Positions 53,885 through 64,000 of a DNA stretch of 64,000 nt are shown here, in pieces. The stretch lies in the NCBI GenBank assembly GCA_963700285.1, contig CAVOXA010000001.1, positions 1,664,001-1,728,000 on the forward strand, in the 5' to 3' direction. The notes below the pieces were generated by a model. That model did not search any database. It saw only the letters and a program-made list of their open reading frames with translations, and was not told the origin of the DNA. Source of the DNA: an uncultured Chloroflexia bacterium (GTDB lineage: Bacteria; Chloroflexota; Anaerolineae; JAAYZQ01). The stretch's first letter is position 1. Each line of letters starts with the position of its first letter. The translations under genes and the position numbers were made by a program.

Positions 53885-55918
53885 CTAGCGCGCCCAGCTC
53901 GGGTCGCCATCCCGGTGTGGTCCCTGAACCAGCGCTACCTTGTCCCTTCCGTCCAGTGGCACGGCCCAGATATCCGATGTATCCTGCTCATCGTTCCGCC
54001 CGTTGCTGTTGGAATCGAGCAACTGGGTAAAGGCGACCCAGCGGCTGTCGGGCGACCAGGCAGGCGTGCGCGCCCAGGCGTTCGCCGTCAGGCTCCGTGG
54101 GTCGCTGCCGTTGGCCCTGGCTACCCAGACGTCGCCCATATCCTCCTCGTCGACGGCGCCATTGCCATTGGTATCGCGGGAGATGCGGAGGAAAGCGACC
54201 CATTGGCCATCGGGCGACCAGGTGGGCTGCACGTCGCAAGCGGGCCCGCCCAGCCAGACCTGGCGCTGGCCTCCATCGCCATTCATGGTAAAGATATCCC
54301 AGTTGCTGCTCCCCTTAAAGCCTTCAGTATAGATGATCCGCCCATCGGGGGCCCAGTCAGGCCATTGGTCCTCGGCGGGGGTAAAGGTCAGGCGCGTGAG
54401 CTGGCCGTTGGCCTGACGGACGTGGATCTCCGAGTTCCCCTCGGCGGTGGTCGACAGCGCCAGGCGGCGCCCGTCGGGGTCCCAGCGCGCATAGTCATCC
54501 CAGGCGCCCGTGGCCACCAGTGGCCCCTGTCCCCCGCCGCTGCCGTCCATCGACCACAGATCGTAGCTGCCCCGCCGGTGGCTGGTGAACGCGATCCGGG
54601 CCCCATCGGGCGACCAGTCGGGCAGCCAATCGTTGGCGTTGTTGTTGGTCAGCCGGGCCACGTTGCCGCTCGTCAGATTCACGACATAGATCTCGAGGTT
54701 GCCGTGGCGGTTGGAGGTAAAAGCCAGCCGCCCAAAGTGTGCGGTAGGCGGCCGGGTTGGAGGCGGCGGTGCGTCCGTTGGAGGTAGCGGGGTGATTGGT
54801 TCCGCTGCTGTGGGGTCGGGCGGCAGCGGGGTGTGTGGCTCCGGCCCCGGCACTGTCCCCACGGCTGGCACCAGCGTCGATGTGGGGCGGGCAGGCGCCG
54901 GCGTGACCACGACGATCGACCTGGCGGCGGTGGGAGTGAGCCTATCCGCAGGAGCGCCGCCACCGGACAGCAGGAGGAGCAAGCCCAGAAGGATTACAAG
55001 GGCCGCCGCAGCGCCGGCCAGGATCCAGGGCAGCAGGGATCGCCGCCGGCCCGTTGGCAGGGGCCGCGGCCCGCCGGCCAGAGATGCCCGAAAGGCCCTT
55101 CGCAGCTCGCTGCCCGACTGGTACCGGTCCTGGGGCCGCTTGGCCAGCGCCTTCAGGATGACCTGCTCCGAGGCCACGGGCAGGCCCGGCCTGATCTGCC
55201 TCGGGGGCGGCGGGACCTCATAGATGACCGCGTGCAGGGTCGCATGGGGCGTCGAGCGGCGAAAAGCCGACCGGCCGGTGAGCATCTGGTAGAGCAACAA
55301 TCCCAGGGCGTAGAGGTCGGCGCGGTGGTCCACCGGCTGGCCTTCGGCCTGCTCGGGGGCCATGTACTCCGGGGTGCCCAGGATGATCCCGGTGCGGGTC
55401 AGGTGCAGGCCATCGGCCGCGCGGGCAATGCCAAAGTCGGCCACCTTGGCTGTTGCGTCCCGGGCCCGGAGCGGGTCGGCACTGAAGAGGATGTTGCTGG
55501 GCTTGATGTCGCGGTGGATCACGCCCTGGCCGTGGGCATAGTCCAGCGCCCTGGACACCTCGGTCACGATGCGCAGGGCTTCTGCCTCGTCCAGGGGACC
55601 GGCGGCCAGCCGTTCCTGGAGGGAGCCGCCCTCCAGGTACTCCATGGCGATATAATACTGCCCGCTGGCGACGCCGGTATCATAGATGTGGACAATGTTG
55701 GGATGGTTGAGCCGGGCTACCGACCTGGCCTCACGCAGGAAACGGGCCACAAACTCCTGGTCGTGCCCAAAGGTGGCCGGGAGGACCTTGAGGGCCACGT
55801 ACCGGCCCAACGATGGCTGCCGCGCCTTGTAGACGACGGCCATCCCACCGCGCCCGATCTCGGTCACGATCTGGTATGTGCCTAGCTGGCTGCCGATCCA
55901 TGATCCGTCAGTACTCAT
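53885..55918 (-). CDS. Receptor-like Ser/Thr kinase with extracellular TolB/PD40 beta-propeller
   Basis: [14 protein letters not shown]; repeated PxWSPDG; acidic DxNxNG loops. Confidence 0.92.
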   Translation of the reverse strand: MSTDGSWIGSQLGTYQIVTEIGRGGMAVVYKARQPSLGRYVALKVLPATFGHDQEFVARFLREARSVARLNHPNIVHIYDTGVASGQYYIAMEYLEGGSLQERLAAGPLDEAEALRIVTEVSRALDYAHGQGVIHRDIKPSNILFSADPLRARDATAKVADFGIARAADGLHLTRTGIILGTPEYMAPEQAEGQPVDHRADLYALGLLLYQMLTGRSAFRRSTPHATLHAVIYEVPPPPRQIRPGLPVASEQVILKALAKRPQDRYQSGSELRRAFRASLAGGPRPLPTGRRRSLLPWILAGAAAALVILLGLLLLLSGGGAPADRLTPTAARSIVVVTPAPARPTSTLVPAVGTVPGPEPHTPLPPDPTAAEPITPLPPTDAPPPPTRPPTAHFGRLAFTSNRHGNLEIYVVNLTSGNVARLTNNNANDWLPDWSPDGARIAFTSHRRGSYDLWSMDGSGGGQGPLVATGAWDDYARWDPDGRRLALSTTAEGNSEIHVRQANGQLTRLTFTPAEDQWPDWAPDGRIIYTEGFKGSSNWDIFTMNGDGGQRQVWLGGPACDVQPTWSPDGQWVAFLRISRDTNGNGAVDEEDMGDVWVARANGSDPRSLTANAWARTPAWSPDSRWVAFTQLLDSNSNGRNDEQDTSDIWAVPLDGRDKVALVQGPHRDGDPSWAR

Positions 55919-55977
55919 CGTTGTGCGCCTCAGACCCGAGGCTTGCTGGCTCTCTGGCTGATACGGCTGGCTGCCGA

Positions 55978-57186
55978 TCAGTAGTTGATGGTGAGCGTGT
56001 AGAGATGGTTCTGGTTCAGAGCACCTCCAGTATAAACCTGAAGGTAGTACGTACCGGCCGGCAGGTCCCGTATCCGCAGGTTCATCTGACCATCGCCTCC
56101 AGGTAGCTGGTTAATGTCTCTGTCGACTGACGACTTGTCTGTTCTACGCACCAGGACCTGGCCGTCAGCCTGATAGTTGGTGACGTCAACATTTAGCGTC
56201 GAGTTTCGAGCCAGTACGACGCGATAGTAGTCATTTGTGTCGTTGGGATAGGCACTGTAGGCCTGTCCCGGCCTCAAAGGACCGTATGCTGTAGTCATGG
56301 TATTAAACTGTTCGCAGAAAACGTTGCTCGCAGAGCACGGCGGCGCAAACTGAGGAACCTGATTGGGCTGACGTCTCAGCACTGGCAGAAAGGTACGGGA
56401 CTTTTCGGGTGCGGTCGTACCCAGTGTCACGTCGTCAACAAACAGGTTGCTGTTTGCGGAGCTGTCGGTCTCGGCACGGATATCCAGTTGGACCGTCTGA
56501 CCGGCGTAGGCGCTCAGGTCCACCACGCGTTTGACCCACGTATCCGTATTTGTTTCCGTACACAGGTAAAAGACATCCACAGCTGTAGCGTTATTGATGA
56601 CAACGCCACCAAGGTCATTTTCACAACTATCCGCAGAGGCAATCCACATCCAGAAGCCCAGAACCGCTTCTTGTGCATTCGCTGGAACAGTGACAATCTG
56701 CGCGATTGCCGAAATTTCGTCGTCAGCGCCGCCCAGCCATACGGCCCAACGGCCACCGTGCGGGGGGGTGAGGAGGACCTCCTCATCCAAGATGAGGGGC
56801 CAGCCCTGCTTGGAATACTCGTACCACGAACCATCGGGCCCATTCTCAAAACCACCGTCGACGATGCCGTTGACCGCGGCCGGGGCGCCTGCCGTTGGCC
56901 CGTCAAGCTGGGCCTGCTGGCCCGGTCCCTTTGGCAGGCTGTGAGGGTCGACCATGCCCTGCTCAGTCTCACCTACTTTCCGGCTTTCCCCAGTGGGCTC
57001 GGCAACGCTTCCAAGTAGCTGTGACGCCGCGTCGCGCAGGATGGGACCGTCGCTGTTCGCTGTGCCCTGCGGTCTGGCGCCTGTCAGGGCCTGGCTAGGC
57101 CCACGGGCAATGCCTGGTAGGCCGGCAAGGATCATCACCAGACTCAGTCCCACGCTTACTATGATGGCAAAACGCCCAAAGTTCAT
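55978..57186 (-). CDS. Secreted protein with jelly-roll (carbohydrate-binding-like) domain and C-terminal PPC-like domain
   Basis: Signal peptide; DGGFENG...W, VDLSAYAGQTV, FVDDV; FLPVLRR; AYGPL...YPNDTNDYY...GTYYLQVY. Confidence 0.7.
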   Translation of the reverse strand: MNFGRFAIIVSVGLSLVMILAGLPGIARGPSQALTGARPQGTANSDGPILRDAASQLLGSVAEPTGESRKVGETEQGMVDPHSLPKGPGQQAQLDGPTAGAPAAVNGIVDGGFENGPDGSWYEYSKQGWPLILDEEVLLTPPHGGRWAVWLGGADDEISAIAQIVTVPANAQEAVLGFWMWIASADSCENDLGGVVINNATAVDVFYLCTETNTDTWVKRVVDLSAYAGQTVQLDIRAETDSSANSNLFVDDVTLGTTAPEKSRTFLPVLRRQPNQVPQFAPPCSASNVFCEQFNTMTTAYGPLRPGQAYSAYPNDTNDYYRVVLARNSTLNVDVTNYQADGQVLVRRTDKSSVDRDINQLPGGDGQMNLRIRDLPAGTYYLQVYTGGALNQNHLYTLTINY

Positions 57187-57260
57187 GTCCTTCTCCTTTT
57201 CCTTTCTGGCTGCTGTGCTGTTGATGTCACGCTACTCTCTCTGCTCACGGAGGCCAGTTG

Positions 57261-59168
57261 TTAGGGTGGCGGCTCGGTTGGCAACCCGGGACCACCTGAT
57301 GGGGGCTTCCAGGTCAAGGTCCGTTCCTCGCTCATGGGACTCAGCGGCACCCCGGTGGGCCTGCCCTTGGCGTCCTCGCCCGTCTTTTGCATAACATGCA
57401 CCGACCACTGGAACTTGCCATCAGCCGACAGATCTTTTGCCAGGTAGTCGTGCTCGCTTAGGGTCCAGTGAGACTCCCGGGTCCACGGCGTCTCGTCCTT
57501 CCAGGTATCGGCCGGAGCAGCTGTAGGCGAGAAGGTCACCACAACCTCATAGTACACCTCTGGCGGCAATTGGCCCACAGGCTGCCAGGACAGTACGACC
57601 GTGTCCTGCGTCGTGAAAGCATCACCATCCTGCGGGCCCAGCAGGACCGGGGCGGCAAACTGCCCGCTAACCCTGGTGGGTGGCGCCGTCACGGTAGGCG
57701 CAAGCTTGGCCGGCGCTTCCGTCGCGGTTGGCGTGGGTGACTGGGTCGACGTGGGCGCAGCGGTCGTTGTCGCCGTCGGCGACGGCGTTGGCGGACTGGT
57801 GGCTGTATCGGCCGCCGTGCTTGTCGCCTGCCGAGTCGCTGGGGGCGGCGTTTCCGTGTCCTCTGTGGTGGGCGGCACGGAGGTCACCGCCGGTGAGGGC
57901 GTGGGTGCTGGGATCCTGCTCTCCACCGTAGGTGGTGCGGGTGTAGCAGACGGCCCGGGCAGGGGCGACGGGCCCGGCTCCTGGGCCGTCGCCGTCTGGG
58001 CAACGGCCGTCTGGGCCATGGCCACCGCCGTCGCCTCCGTCTGGGGAGCAGGAGGGGGCGGCCCGCCGATGCCCCCCAGGGCCATGACCAGGCCCGCCGC
58101 CAAGAGGATCAAGGCCAGGGCGCCCACCACCCATATCCCGACCGGCACCCGGCGCCTCGCCGGTTGCGGACCAACCGCGGCTCCAGCCCCGGCCGGACCC
58201 CCGGCCGGCGGCGCTTGTGCTGGCCCCCCCGGCACCGCGCCCGCGGCAGCCACGCCAGCCGCTCCCACCAGCACTGTGGGTGATTCCGGGGGCGGCGTGA
58301 CCGGCCGGGGGGGTGGGGCCTTGACCGGCTGGCCGGCCATGGCCCTCTCCAGGTCATCGGCAAAGGCCCGCACGGACGGGTAGCGATCCGCGGGCGCCTT
58401 GGCCAGGGCCTTGCCCAGCACGTATTCCACCTGCACCGGTAGATCCTGCCGCGTCCCGCGCACCGGTGGCGGTGGCTCGAAGGCGATCTTGAACATGAGG
58501 GCCGCCGTGTTATCGGCATAAAAGGGCACGCCGCCGACCAGCATCTGGTAGGCCACCACCGCCAGGCTGTACTGGTCGCTGCGGGCATCGGCAACCTGTC
58601 CCTGGGCCTGCTCTGGGGACAGATACTCGGGCGTTCCAATCACCATACCTGTGGCCGTCAGGCCCGAGTCCTGCACGGCCCGGGCGATACCAAAGTCGGT
58701 CAGGGTGACCCGTCCCGCGCGTCCGACGACGACGTTCGAGGGCTTGATGTCGCGGTGGACCAGCCCGTTGTGGTGGGCAAAGTCCAGCGCGTCGGCCAGC
58801 GGGCGCAGGATCGACATCACCTGCTTGGGCGCCAGGGGGCCCTGCCGCTGGACAAGGTTGGTCAGCGTCTCTCCGGCCAGGTACTCCATCACGTAATAGT
58901 ACCAGCCGCCCTCCTGCCCTACGTCGTAGATGTGAACGATGTTGGGGTGTTCCAGCCGGGCGGCGGCGCGCGCCTCGCGCAGGAACCGCTCGACCGAGTT
59001 CTGCTGCCAGGCCAGATGGGGGGCCAGTACCTTGACCGCCACGTGGCGGTCAAGGTTCGGGTCATAGCCCCGGTAGACGGTGGACATCCCGCCGCGGCCG
59101 ATCTCGTCCTGGATCCGGTACTTGCCCAACTGGGTTCCGACTAGTGATCTGTCATTGTTCATCCTCAC
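57261..59168 (-). CDS. Receptor-like Ser/Thr kinase with Fn3-like extracellular domain
   Basis: [19 protein letters not shown]; TM; APVLLGP...LSWQP...FQWSV. Confidence 0.92.
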   Translation of the reverse strand: MRMNNDRSLVGTQLGKYRIQDEIGRGGMSTVYRGYDPNLDRHVAVKVLAPHLAWQQNSVERFLREARAAARLEHPNIVHIYDVGQEGGWYYYVMEYLAGETLTNLVQRQGPLAPKQVMSILRPLADALDFAHHNGLVHRDIKPSNVVVGRAGRVTLTDFGIARAVQDSGLTATGMVIGTPEYLSPEQAQGQVADARSDQYSLAVVAYQMLVGGVPFYADNTAALMFKIAFEPPPPVRGTRQDLPVQVEYVLGKALAKAPADRYPSVRAFADDLERAMAGQPVKAPPPRPVTPPPESPTVLVGAAGVAAAGAVPGGPAQAPPAGGPAGAGAAVGPQPARRRVPVGIWVVGALALILLAAGLVMALGGIGGPPPPAPQTEATAVAMAQTAVAQTATAQEPGPSPLPGPSATPAPPTVESRIPAPTPSPAVTSVPPTTEDTETPPPATRQATSTAADTATSPPTPSPTATTTAAPTSTQSPTPTATEAPAKLAPTVTAPPTRVSGQFAAPVLLGPQDGDAFTTQDTVVLSWQPVGQLPPEVYYEVVVTFSPTAAPADTWKDETPWTRESHWTLSEHDYLAKDLSADGKFQWSVHVMQKTGEDAKGRPTGVPLSPMSEERTLTWKPPSGGPGLPTEPPP

Positions 59169-60437: not shown

Positions 60438-60622
60438 GGTTCAGTGTCCTGAGCGAGTTATCCTCTTCAGGGATCGCGAGTAGCTGGCCGCTGGGCACCG
60501 CCGTGAACAGGCGGTGCTGGATGCTGCATCTGGATCCGGCGTGCTACCGTCTCCAGCACCGGCTCTTCAGGCCGGTGCGAGCGCCTGCTGGTAGCTGTTG
60601 GGCACAGTCCCTTCAGCCGTTT

Positions 60623-60669
60623 GTAGTGCGCGCTTCAGCGCGCTTCTGTGGCGCCAAAGCGCCTACTAC
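60623..60669. repeat. GTAG-family REP doublet
   Basis: GTAGTGCGCGCTTCAGCGCGC ... GGCGCCAAAGCGCCTACTAC (inverted pair). Confidence 0.65.
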
Positions 60670-60796
60670 GAACCTCTGTTCGTCTGCCACAGTAGGTTCC
60701 CGCCTGTCCCATTGCTTGACCGGTGGGTCAAGAGCCATAACGGGGCTGGAAAACCGGCCAGCCTGCCTCCAAGCCCGATTGATCGGGCGCCGCTCT

Positions 60797-60822: not shown

Positions 60823-60869
60823 GGTCTGCACCGGCTCCGATGGGCCGCCAGCCAGGCATCCAACTCGGG

Positions 60870-61083
60870 CCCCGCCCTGAGCCTCGAATCCTGAGGCTGT
60901 CCCCAGAACCTACTACACAGGGCGGGACCGGTTCATCTTTGGTTGGGCACACCACCCGGGCGGCGCCCCAACCGGGAACAGGCCTGGAGTTTTCTCTCTC
61001 TCGGCACTAGCGCCGCGTCCGTGAACCCGGCGCACCTGGCCTTTGAGGAACACACCTGGCGACCCCGCACACCGAAACCCGAT
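60870..61083 (-). ncRNA. DGR template-repeat 3' remnant (with IMH*) and structured downstream spacer
   Basis: 61055-61082 is identical to the VR1 3' end at 62083-62110, then diverges into hairpin-rich sequence (GCGCCG/CGGCGC; GGTTGGG/CCCAACC; CCCGCCCTG/CAGGGCGGG). Confidence 0.75.
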
Positions 61084-61953
61084 GAAATCCACGCCGACCT
61101 GGACCGGAAACACCAGGCTCTTCTTGGGATGCAGGACCAAGCGCAGCCGCGCCCCCAGGAACTCACGGATGGCGGCCTTCCAGTCCTGCAGTTGCGCCTT
61201 GTCGTTGCAAAAGAGGACAAAGTCGTCCATGTAGCGCAGGTAGGCGCGACACTTCAACTGGTGTTTGGCAAACGTGTCCAGCTCGTGCAAATACAGGTTG
61301 GCCCAGAACTGGCTGGTAAGGTTCCCGATCGGAAGGCAGCGCGGGCGCAGCGCCGCAAAGAGGCCCTCACCCGAGCCCGTCGTCGGGTAATCGCCCGGGA
61401 AATAGACGGGCGGGCACTCGCTGGCCTGGATCCCCGCGCCGCTGTCCAAGATCTGGTCCACCAGCCACATCGCCTCCTGGTCGGCGATGCGCCGGGCAAG
61501 CAGGCCGCGCAGGATCTGGTGGTCGACGCTCGGAAAGTACTTGACGACATCGCCATGAAAGGCGTAGCCGTACTGGCGCAGCCAGGCCTGGCACTGATCC
61601 AGCGCCCGGTGGGTGCCCTTGCCCTGGCGACAGGCAAAGCTGGTGTCGATGAAACGCGCCTCCCAGATCGGCTCGATGACCCGGCACAGCGCGTGGTGCA
61701 CGACCCGATCGCGGAAGGGCGCGGCGCTGACCAGCCTCCGCTTCGGCTCGTGGATGTAGAAACTGGTGTAGGCGCCGGGCTGGTAGCTCCCCCCGCGCAG
61801 CTCGGCTTGCAGGTCCAGCAGGTTGTGCTCCAGGTCAAACTCAAAGCTGGCCACCGCCGCCCGGTCGCGCTTGCCTCTGCGGGCGGCGCGGAAGGCCAGG
61901 TAGAGGTTCTCAAAGCTATGGATCTGTGGGTACAGGTTCTTGTACGTTTTCAT
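60913..61953 (-). pseudogene. DGR reverse transcriptase, C-terminally truncated and fused to the TR remnant
   Basis: PKRRLVSAAPFRDRVVHHA, GKGTH, DVVKYFPSVDH, LPIGNLTSQF, YLRYMDDF; RT-like sequence stops at VDFIGFR, followed by CAGSPG (VR/TR end). Confidence 0.88.
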
Positions 61954-62010
61954 AGATCATGCTTCCCCGGCACCTGAGGGGCTAAAGCTCCCAAAACCCT
62001 CCCGCGGCGA

Positions 62011-62037
62011 TCTGAGGGGGGCAAAGCCCCCCTCAGA
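62011..62037. promoter_or_regulatory. Hairpin/cruciform downstream of the VR1 IMH (DGR homing element)
   Basis: TCTGAGGGGGGC-AAA-GCCCCCCTCAGA, perfect 12-bp stem about 40 nt after the target stop. Confidence 0.75.
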
Positions 62038-62075: not shown

Positions 62076-62203
62076 TCACTCTCCTGGCGACCCCGCACAC
62101 CGAAACCCGAGACTGATGTAGCTGTAACCCGGGTTGTGGCTGTACGCGGTCCGCCGCGCGGACGTAGTACGCATCGTTGAGCCACGAACCGCCACGCAGC
62201 ACC
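62076..62203 (-). repeat. Variable repeat VR1
   Basis: Codon-aligns with VR2; differences concentrated at positions 1-2 of NNC codons. Confidence 0.8.
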
Positions 62204-63605
62204 TTATACGAACCGCTGGCCGGCCCCGGCGGGTTGCGGTAGGGCGAGACGCCGTAGTAGCTGCTGCTGTACCAATCGTTGACCCATTCCCAGACGTTGC
62301 CGGCCATGTCCAGCGCGCCGTAGGGGCTGGCGCCGCTGGGGTAGCTGCCCACCCGGCTGGTGTCGCCCACGCAGCCGCTGTAGTTCGCCCGGCTGCAGTC
62401 CGGCGCCTGGTTCCCCCAGGGGTAGGTCCGCGCGCCGGTGCCGCGGGCCGCCTTCTCCCACTCGGCCTCGGTGGGCAGGCGCTTGCCGGCCCAGGTGCAG
62501 TAGGCCCGCGCCCCGTACCAGGTCACTTCGATGGCCGGGTGGTCGCCGTAGCCGGCATCGGCCTGCCAGACCCCGCCGGCCTGGTGGATGCGCACATCCG
62601 GATCGTCTGTGTCCAGCCAGGTGTCCCCCCCTCCTGCTGGTTGCCCCTGGCATTGAGAAATTCAGCGTACTGAGCGTTGGTCACCTCGTACCGGTCGATG
62701 GCGTAGGCGTCAAGGTACACGGTGTGCACCGGCTGCTCGTCGCTGTCGCCGTCGTTGCTGCCCATGGTGAACTCGCCGGCGGGCACGGAGACCATGTCGG
62801 CGGGCGGAGTCCGCTGTTCCGTGACAAAATCCCAAACCGGCCCGGCGGTGGTCGCCCCCCGCGAATCCCTGGCCACCACCTGCCAGTCGTAGTGCGCACC
62901 CTCGCTCAACCCGCCGGGGTCGCAACTGGCGCTGGCCACGTCGTTGCACACGAGCGCATCGCGTATCCGGCGTGCTGTCCCGGCCTCCAGGTAGACGTCA
63001 TAGGTCACCGCATCGCCGTCGGGATCGCCGCCGCTCCAGCTCAGCACCACGTCGACGCTCTGATCCGTGGCGCCGTCGGCCGGCGATGGAGCCCAGGGGC
63101 TGGTGGGCGGCTGGTTCGGGCGGTCCCTGCGGATCGTGGGCAGGTGTGCGCGGTGGATCGTGGGAAAGGTGGCGCGCAGGGTGTAGGAAGACGTGTTATT
63201 GAAACCCGTGGGCGTGTAGATATAGATGTAATAGTCCCCGGGATCCCCGGCGTAGTCCAGGTGGTATGGCGGCTTCCAGTCGCGGGCCACCGTATTGCCC
63301 GTCGATTGGTAGTACAGCAGCAACTGTACATCTTGACCGGTATGGTTGCTCAGGTCCACGGCGATCGGTCCGGCCCTGTAGAGATGGATGGAAAAGTAAT
63401 CCTTCTCGTCGTTGGGATAGCCATAGTAGGTCCGGTGCGAGCGCAGCGGGCCGTTGGCCTGCTGGTAGCTGTTGTTGGGCTCCACCTCCCAGGGGCCCTC
63501 AAAGTAGGCCAGGCTGGCCGCCAGGGACGCCGCCGGATAGGCCGGCACCCACCCCAGGGCCAGCAGTATGGTCATGGCCAGAATCGTTATCCCCGTTGGT
63601 TTCAT
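62076..63605 (-). pseudogene. DGR target 1: secreted PPC-like + Fn3-like + FGE-sulfatase (CLec) protein with two frameshifts
   Basis: Signal peptide; [49 protein letters not shown]; -1 at the G7 run 62625-62631 and +1 at ~62145; corrected end is [11 protein letters not shown]. Confidence 0.82.
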
Positions 63606-63660
63606 TGGCTGGCTCACTCCTCCTGTGAATTGCTATCGCCCTGTCTCACCGTGTCAGAAA

Positions 63661-63684
63661 CCTGCCCTGAGCGCCGTCGAAGGG
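63661..63684 (-). repeat. Short palindromic REP-like element downstream of VR2
   Basis: CCCTTCGACGGCGCTCAGGGCAGG; resembles the insertion inside the RT gene. Confidence 0.55.
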
Positions 63685-63708
63685 ACCGGGAAGCAAAAGT
63701 CCAGAAGC

Positions 63709-64000
63709 TCACTCTTCTGGCGACTGCGCACACCGAAACCCGACGATGTTGTAGGTGCCGTCCAGGCTGTGGTGGATGCGGTTCGCCGCGCGGAGGACGT
63801 TCGCTTCGGCGAGCCACGCACCGCTACGCAGCACCTTAAACGACCCGCTGGCTGGTCCGGGCGGGTCGCGGTAAGGCGAGATGCTGTAGTAGTTGTCTTT
63901 GTACCAATCGTTGACCCATTCCCAGACGTTGCCGGCCATATCCAGCGCGCCGTAGGGGCTGGCACCGCTGGGGTAGCTGCCCACCCGCGTCGTGTCGCCC
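63709..64000 (-). CDS. DGR target 2 (3' part): FGE-sulfatase/CLec domain with VR2 at ~63709-63835
   Basis: [22 protein letters not shown]...RAANR...VGFRCAQSPEE*; 5' part lies outside the window. Confidence 0.88.
   Translation of the reverse strand, partial: GDTTRVGSYPSGASPYGALDMAGNVWEWVNDWYKDNYYSISPYRDPPGPASGSFKVLRSGAWLAEANVLRAANRIHHSLDGTYNIVGFRCAQSPEE

Follow-up and report, generated by a model that had tools for sequence, protein, structure and literature searches.

The prototype of the diversity-generating retroelements (DGRs) is that of Bordetella phage BPP-1, in which the parts follow one another in the order target, avd, template region (TR) and the reverse transcriptase (RT) gene brt. 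Many DGR targets are built on the FGE-sulfatase domain, a C-type-lectin fold. Here we compare with these systems a locus near the end of a 64,000-nucleotide (nt) stretch of DNA from an uncultured Chloroflexia bacterium ("the window", C1:1664001-1728000), which belongs to a 7.05-Mb assembly of 22 contigs (G000; 89% complete, 6.5% contamination). The locus is very probably a decayed DGR: the variable regions (VRs) of two tandem target genes carry the pattern of adenine mutagenesis, and the RT gene has lost its end and is fused to the final 28 nt of the TR. It is likely that the locus can no longer diversify on its own.

The class, with its FGE-sulfatase and other C-type-lectin-fold targets, has been surveyed, and a search of that survey gave no relevant passage on degenerate or truncated loci or on a missing TR (PMC5758913). 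Degenerate DGR loci are an already known kind, of which the window adds another example. In Thiohalocapsa PB-PSB1, loci with missing or pseudogenized machinery lie beside one complete locus, and most of the incomplete loci are still diversified, some of them in trans (PMC10907252). Multiple related DGRs are reported there in clades of multicellular bacteria, with filamentous chloroflexi named among these forms (PMC10907252).

All DGR-related genes of the window locus lie on the minus strand, where the order from 5' to 3' is target 2, target 1, a spacer with a hairpin, the RT (residues 1 to about 290), a 28-nt TR stub and a structured RNA that we call Spacer-like. Target 1 (62076..63617) has a signal peptide-like N-terminus, a weak fn3 match and an FGE-sulfatase domain recognized by Pfam on two open reading frame (ORF) pieces (E=4e-15 and 8e-41). 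The 3' part of target 2 falls in the window (63709..64000; Pfam FGE-sulfatase, E=1.1e-20; C-terminus ...GFRCAQSPEE and stop); reading on in the genome places its start outside the window, at about window-equivalent 65213, and its stop at 63709. In these FGE-sulfatase targets the VR is placed in the codons just upstream of the terminal GFRCA...stop. VR1, found by codon alignment, is a 23-codon variable stretch with one extra base at 62145 (62109..62178), and VR2 is a stretch of 23 codons (63742..63810) supported both by codon alignment and by gapless alignment with the TRs of relatives.

The two VRs were compared in a gapless codon register anchored on the common stop codon, from which the extra base of VR1 was omitted. 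Sixteen of the 23 codons differ, 12 of them with C at the third position in both copies. By codon position the nucleotide differences number 9/11/3 in the VR and 11/10/19 in the 114 codons upstream; positions 1 and 2 carry 20 of 23 differences in the VR vs 21 of 40 upstream (Fisher p=0.0065). The density of differences also departs from that of the upstream sequence (23 in 69 nt vs 40 in 342 nt, p=3e-5). Identical in both copies are CGC GCG GCG, GGG TTT CGG TGT GCG and the 3' flank GAGTGAGCTTCTGGA. From the end of VR1 to the stop codon the sequence (62076..62108) reads GGG TTT CGG TGT GCG GGG TCG CCA GG..., its first 28 nt identical to the TR stub, and this invariant GC-rich 3' end is common to VR1, VR2 and the stub, which lacks the flank found downstream of the VRs.

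A preliminary description of this DNA, made from the sequence alone, had proposed two tandem DGR targets whose VRs bear the mark of mutagenesis at AAC codons. That proposal is upheld: the paralogues align as described; all 12 listed pairs of VR codons are present, in a list that silently corrects for the extra base at 62145; and the retained third-position C and the conserved blocks and flank are as it gave them. Its statement that the paralogues differ upstream at synonymous third positions applies to the 19 of 40 differences found at position 3, the remainder lying at positions 1 and 2. It had named VRs no different from the rest of the paralogues as the outcome that would speak against it; in both density and position bias they do differ.

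The pattern can be set against the templates of related elements. Homologues of the window RT, 57-82% identical, occur in 16 of 41 related genomes (G000 included) and in 10 of the 23 of good quality; a further 160 loci were kept from two public collections. The relatives found with the RT are recorded as Chloroflexota, mostly metagenome-assembled genomes (MAGs) of Anaerolineae type. TRs of relatives were chosen for how well they match the 79 positions that VR1 and VR2 have in common, the count of A serving only to break ties. Such TRs, from loci whose RTs are up to 80% identical to that of the window, align to VR1 and VR2 without gaps over 105 nt. In each of seventeen such TRs, 14-19 of the 26 positions that differ between the VRs are A, vs 10-19 of the 79 that agree (odds ratios 6-11, each p<=2.4e-4, the TRs being related and the tests not independent of one another). 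With the TR of the relative L094, 11 of the 18 differing codons in a 35-codon frame differ solely at positions that are A in that template, and for 19 of the 26 differing nucleotides one or more of eight relatives' TRs have A. The other seven (third-position T/A and T/C, G/C in codon 10, C/T in CCG/CTG, and GG/CA in GGG/CAG) are best read as ordinary drift.

These comparisons bear on the origin that the preliminary description had given the VRs, namely diversification from one AAC-rich TR, since lost. Such an origin is supported by the adjoining DGR-type RT, by the A-rich TRs of relatives and by a genome in which no TR for these VRs was found; an adenine-specific template in relatives, whose lack it had listed as contrary evidence, is represented by the 17 TRs enriched in A at the differing sites. 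Its further claim that the lost TR can be rebuilt holds for the former A sites marked by VR1/VR2 differences and fails for sites where the two copies happen to agree. For a second TR serving VR2, which it had raised as one explanation of differences such as GGG/CAG, there is no evidence; the alternative it offered, drift, fits the two differing bases of that codon pair, both at sites that are A in none of the eight TRs. The pair GGT/GAC, which it had placed in the same class, is half explained otherwise: relatives' TRs read GAC, so its middle base is an A site.

A retroelement need not be invoked if the two targets are ordinary paralogues whose divergence reflects diversifying selection at the tip where the lectin fold binds its ligand. 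That the seven differences fall off the predicted A sites would suit such a history, as would the differences that the paralogues show elsewhere, including the replaced segment 62530-62690; against it stand the C kept at position 3 in 12 of 16 differing codons, a position bias unlike the rest of the gene, the coincidence of the variable sites with the adenines of homologous TRs, and the presence of an RT, a TR stub and a TR-flanking RNA immediately downstream of the targets. We consider this explanation extremely improbable.

The RT itself supplies the evidence for decay. Directly downstream of target 1 lies an ORF of 346 codons (61953-60913, minus strand) that matches RVT_1 (E=2.5e-16); within it the RT remnant proper, fingers and palm with YMDD and a missing thumb, spans 61084..61953. 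Residues 1 to about 290 are homologous to RTs found in cassettes with Avd and a TR/VR pair, placing the protein in the DGR clade, and its NCBIfam matches all lie below the cut-offs. Homologues align to the window ORF only up to residue 293-297, wherever the contig allows. The RTs of eight intact cassettes continue as ...FLGF(R/H/K)(V/I)YP.HRRLKRRNG... for 57-87 more residues, to totals of about 350-395; past residue ~290-294 the window ORF reads instead as the GFRCA end of a TR or VR. A full-length RT with a thumb was thus not found at the window locus, the homology stopping at ~290-294.

What follows the palm is the end of the template. Inside the RT ORF, 28 nt (61082-61055) are identical at 28 of 28 positions to the 3' end of VR1 (repeat family D3), differ from VR2 at GGG/CAG, and align with the 3' ends of relatives' TRs. 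We take this stub (61055..61083), ATC GGG TTT CGG TGT GCG GGG TCG CCA GG, to be the last ~28 nt of the TR. The deletion breakpoint probably lies at 61083/61084, just 5' of ATC, because this codon matches the ends of relatives' TRs (...AAC/AAT ATC GGN TTY CGN) whereas their RTs have at that place TGC (Cys) in close relatives and CTG (Leu) in more distant ones. A microhomology-mediated deletion across ATCGGGTTTCGG was considered and rejected: close relatives' RTs have TGC and not ATC, with only 4-10 nt in common with their own TR ends. The tail of the ORF (residues ~295-346) is the same peptide, ...GFRCAAAGPGVFLKGQVRRVHGRGAGAERE..., as a frame that follows the TR in L094, and because L094 reads that peptide downstream of its TR, the tail is a spurious translation of the TR stub and the non-coding RNA beyond. 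The loss of the TR stated in the preliminary description accordingly covers the A-rich body, while the last 28 nt and the downstream RNA survive at 60854-61082, fused to the truncated RT.

Intact relatives indicate what used to lie in between. In them the RT (about 350-395 residues) is followed by avd, the TR (~105 nt aligned) and the Spacer-like RNA, giving for this clade the gene order target-RT-avd-TR-RNA; 725-867 nt separate the RT motif from the TR end in nine relatives. L094, with an RT 80% identical to that of the window, has an RT of 394 residues, then an Avd (NF033474 at 83.6 bits, cut-off 80; also PF22296), then the TR. In the closest relative, G017 (RT 82% identical), unrelated sequence interrupts the RT at about residue 260, and no TR was found on its short contig, which ends 450 nt past the cut; this looks like independent decay of the same DGR lineage. 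This locus of G017, on contig C11 (L002 / L022 / L174), also has a VR-bearing target whose N-terminal part is kinase-like. The same-genus genome G001 was tried as a source of an orthologous intact locus and set aside, having only RTs of <=69% DNA identity and no synteny.

A sequence of events can be proposed on this basis. In the ancestor, TR RNA would have been reverse-transcribed by RT-Avd with misincorporation opposite A, and the resulting complementary DNA would then have replaced VR1 and VR2 by mutagenic retrohoming. A single deletion of roughly 0.7-0.9 kb, running from the F-x-G-F-R motif of the RT to the ...N-I-G-F-R end of the TR, would have taken the thumb, avd and the A-rich portion of the template. 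After the deletion the VRs would have changed by ordinary mutation only.

The assembly has indel-rich patches, because rpoC (C10:1212652-1217167) is broken into 10 pieces, with eight switches of frame and two stops in frame, while rpoB (C1) is a single frame of 1294 codons, and single frameshifts anywhere in this genome are not to be read as pseudogenes. As assembled, target 1 consists of three frame segments, with switches at the C7/G7 run 62625-62631 and at 62145, where, owing to the extra base, GFRCA falls in a different frame from the rest of the gene; target 2 has four apparent frameshifts, at about 64975, 64845, 64815 and 64313. One of the latter is absent from a short-read contig of sequencing run X4, 98% alike at 64298-64449, which gives CTG GAC for the CTTGGAC of the assembly and the CTT GAC of target 1; this is the only target frameshift covered by a near-identical contig. 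A proposed decay of the targets to pseudogenes, drawn from these 2+4 frameshifts, was withdrawn after the pieces of rpoC and the X4 contig without the target 2 frameshift had been seen.

Could the RT/TR fusion be another such error, hiding an intact cassette in the true genome? The error-prone patches and the repeats in the locus lend that idea some color, yet the errors seen are 1-nt indels and not kb-scale deletions, and a 167-nt X4 contig with one mismatch spans the junction (61022-61188), with 61 and 105 nt on either side of 61083/61084. We regard an artefact as very improbable: the junction is real DNA and not a slip of long-read assembly, because the X4 contig that spans it is short-read. 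A second X4 short-read contig (157 nt, no mismatches) covers 60863-61019, and one from run X2 (60956-61100, one mismatch) extends past the junction by only 17 nt, less than is required for bridging. Ten sequencing runs were considered, each with <=0.08 of the sampled words, and six of them (X1-X4, X7 and X8) gave scattered short contigs.

Beyond the stub lies a part of the cassette that decay appears to have spared. The segment 60854-61054 aligns with the region directly 3' of the TR in 12 relatives and scores 174.5 bits in nhmmer against a profile of that region (profile positions 3-211), the window sequence being itself in the training set. A consensus fold of 25 clade sequences (the window segment and 24 related loci) has three helical regions and 36 pairs, 28 of which show at least one compensatory double change among the 25. 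The Spacer-like structured non-coding RNA (60854..61054), identified by profile, alignment and covariation, thus stands next to the TR position and is retained intact at the window. Rfam 15 yielded no family match for it, only three chance-level matches.

In BPP-1, a 140-nt Spacer supplies the priming adenosine and envelops bRT-Avd, and of 278 Avd-bearing DGRs, 207 were reported to have stem-loops beyond the 3' end of the TR (bioRxiv 10.1101/2023.10.23.563531). By position, the RNA of this clade is likely the counterpart of that Spacer, and by the same analogy it may function as a priming or Avd-binding RNA. A limited literature search found no description of it in print.

The genome was searched on both strands of all 22 contigs with BLAST (both VRs, word size 7) and with a masked-pattern scan. 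As the preliminary description had proposed, the search was for a TR and for remote targets; it returned no TR for VR1/VR2 anywhere in the 7.05 Mb and several further VR-like ends on C10, C14 and C15. These other VR-like ends, which were all that the scan matched, lie at C15:143553, C10:1150658, C10:1333427, C10:1337725, C14:612903 and elsewhere, and carry A at <=8 of the 26 positions where VR1 and VR2 differ. No TR/VR pair differing only at TR adenines was found for the window locus, either in the locus or on the 22 contigs. An NF033474 search of the genome found one Avd (C10:228202-228510) and none in the window.

That single Avd belongs to a second DGR (C10:223674-228667, 223.7-228.7 kb), apparently intact with target, RT, Avd and TR: a target of ~1100 codons with its VR at 226849-226938, the Avd gene, and a TR at 228578-228667. 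By our own reading of the printed sequences, its 90-nt TR and VR appear to differ only at adenines. As a template for VR1 and VR2 this TR was rejected, since by the same reading its sequence and 3' end differ and BLAST finds no match to either VR, and the C10 element is an unlikely donor for the window VRs. A palindrome resembling repetitive extragenic palindromes, AACCTCCCGCAGGTTTC(N)GAACCTGCGGGAGGTT, recurs at several places beside and among the components of the C10 DGR (approximately C10:223155-223200, 227030-227075, 228140-228185 and 228520-228560) and occurs also in the same-genus locus L006.

With one complete DGR in the genome, the window locus might still be diversified in trans, from a TR on unassembled DNA or in undeleted co-existing strains, the enzymes being the C10 RT and Avd (C10:227084-228510), possibly acting on RNA with the retained Spacer-like element. 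The genome is 89% complete; the C10 element looks intact, with a TR and VR that by our reading differ only at adenines; trans diversification of incomplete loci has been explored, and reported for some, in Thiohalocapsa (PMC10907252). At the window, the Spacer-like RNA and the ORF of the RT N-terminal part are undecayed, and two assembly indels resemble merged variants: in target 2, CTTG would combine CTT and CTG, and in VR1 an additional G precedes TAC at an A-derived site. Set against these are the lack of any TR for VR1/VR2 in 7.05 Mb, a C10 TR that is shorter (again by our own reading), ends differently and has no BLAST match to the VRs, a Spacer-like profile that finds no match at the C10 locus at E<=1e-3, and the fact that the deleted form is the only form in the assembly and in the X4 contig. 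On balance we think diversification in trans unlikely.

A bolder version would have the locus alive in its present shape. Through the deletion, RNA of the RT coding sequence came to lie immediately 5' of what is left of the TR and of the intact Spacer-like RNA, and the RT-Avd of C10 or of co-resident strains might still prime there. We give this very little credence. If it were true, the apparently merged variants in the two targets would reflect a population whose VRs are still heterogeneous, and the window would hold either a recipient locus without a TR that is kept variable in trans or a DGR caught re-templating on new sequence.

Decay by deletion is the explanation that we prefer, and several points weigh against it. 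A TR could lie on unassembled DNA, the genome being 89% complete. The adenine specificity of the window VRs is drawn from the TRs of relatives, and 7 of the 26 differing nucleotides are A in none of eight such TRs. The short hairpin downstream of the VRs, a 7-bp CCAGAAG/CTTCTGG stem after VR2 (z=-0.56) that is weaker after VR1 (z=+0.35), is indistinguishable from shuffled sequence. Fine details such as the extra VR1 base and the six target frameshifts are unreliable in an indel-rich assembly, and the X4 run may come from the same sample as the window, so that the bridging contig is not necessarily independent. In the six runs that gave contigs, VR1 and VR2 are essentially uncovered at 97% likeness, leaving too little of the locus for read-level polymorphism.

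Other features of the locus and genome complete the picture. The spacer between target 1 and the RT contains a GC-rich hairpin (62010..62036; DNA fold z=-3.1, none of 200 shuffles as good), which is kept also in G017 and in a third paralogous fragment on C15 (143340-143690, minus strand). The latter keeps the final ~85 codons of an FGE target, has a VR variant of its own and carries the hairpin of the spacer; a second ...NVGFRCAA-type end follows in place of the RT, and an ORF resembling that of an insertion sequence lies 2 kb off (140462-141724). A fragment of an RT is present on C14. Downstream of the Spacer-like RNA, a scrap of a target N-terminus (60570..60610; repeat family D5), homologous to target 1 at 63430-63480 with internal deletions, includes 18 nt at 100% identity and an adjoining 13-nt match read by eye.

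The two targets are 90-97% alike on either side of the middle of the FGE domain, with unrelated sequence between (62530-62690 vs 64160-64290); this mosaic suggests that other FGE paralogues took part in recombination. At 62960-62985, target 1 and target 2 also differ by a compensated pair of indels (+1, -7). A multi-hairpin repeat (GTAGTGCGCGCTTCAGCGCGC...GGCGCCAAAGCGCCTACTAC) occupies window 60617-60680; parts of it recur dozens of times in G001, some copies in arrays with a period of ~170 nt (C17:105056-105595, C4:707255-707985), and contigs from several environmental sequencing runs cover it too. The DGR remnant is flanked by three ORFs that, judged by eye for their domains, resemble Ser/Thr kinases (window 53885-59168; C1:1729265-1731349). 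Two of these, of 677 and 635 codons, lie in the window and a 695-codon open frame lies just outside it; they have Pro/Thr-rich linkers, and one has beta-propeller-like repeats. Such neighbors recall multicellular bacteria, in which DGR targets are associated with signalling and conflict proteins.

The finding leaves knowledge of the DGR mechanism unchanged. Its interest is that of a clean, base-level example of how a DGR may die, through one deletion between the F-x-G-F-R motif of the RT and the ...I-G-F-R end of its own template that would have removed the thumb, avd and all mutable adenines while the diversified targets and the flanking RNA remain. A limited literature search, exclusive of the supplements of bioRxiv 10.1101/2023.10.23.563531, found no description of a deletion fusing RT to TR. 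Recognition of such lesions should aid the annotation of Chloroflexota MAGs, where orphan VRs and RT genes lacking a TR otherwise pass for odd RT fusions. The comparison also yields a candidate RNA family, the ~200-nt post-TR RNA of this DGR clade, with its strong covariation and no Rfam family.

Judged by RT clade, target fold, VR pattern and flanking RNA, the window locus is classed as a DGR. It shares with BPP-1-type elements a DGR-type RT beside the targets, a C-terminal VR in a lectin fold whose NNC codons stand where homologous TRs have AAC, and an invariant GC-rich VR 3' end. It departs from them in having no TR body, avd or RT thumb and no demonstrable TR/VR pair; TR body, accessory gene and full-length RT are the three features of an active member that the locus lacks. 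The gene order of its clade, target-RT-avd-TR-RNA, also differs from the target-avd-TR-brt of BPP-1. The structured RNA directly 3' of the TR position resembles in its placement the 140-nt BPP-1 Spacer with its priming site (bioRxiv 10.1101/2023.10.23.563531).

Within its own genome, the window locus resembles the C10 DGR in the order target-RT-avd-TR, in the RT (58-60% identical to that of the window) and in a target that ends in GFRC; by our own reading of the printed sequences, the C10 element is unlike it in a shorter and different TR/VR (90 nt) and a different 3' end. As with Thiohalocapsa PB-PSB1, one complete DGR (C10) here accompanies others without key machinery (the window, C15 and C14), and what sets the window apart from those loci is a lesion readable at base resolution, the RT fused to the 3' end of the TR (PMC10907252).

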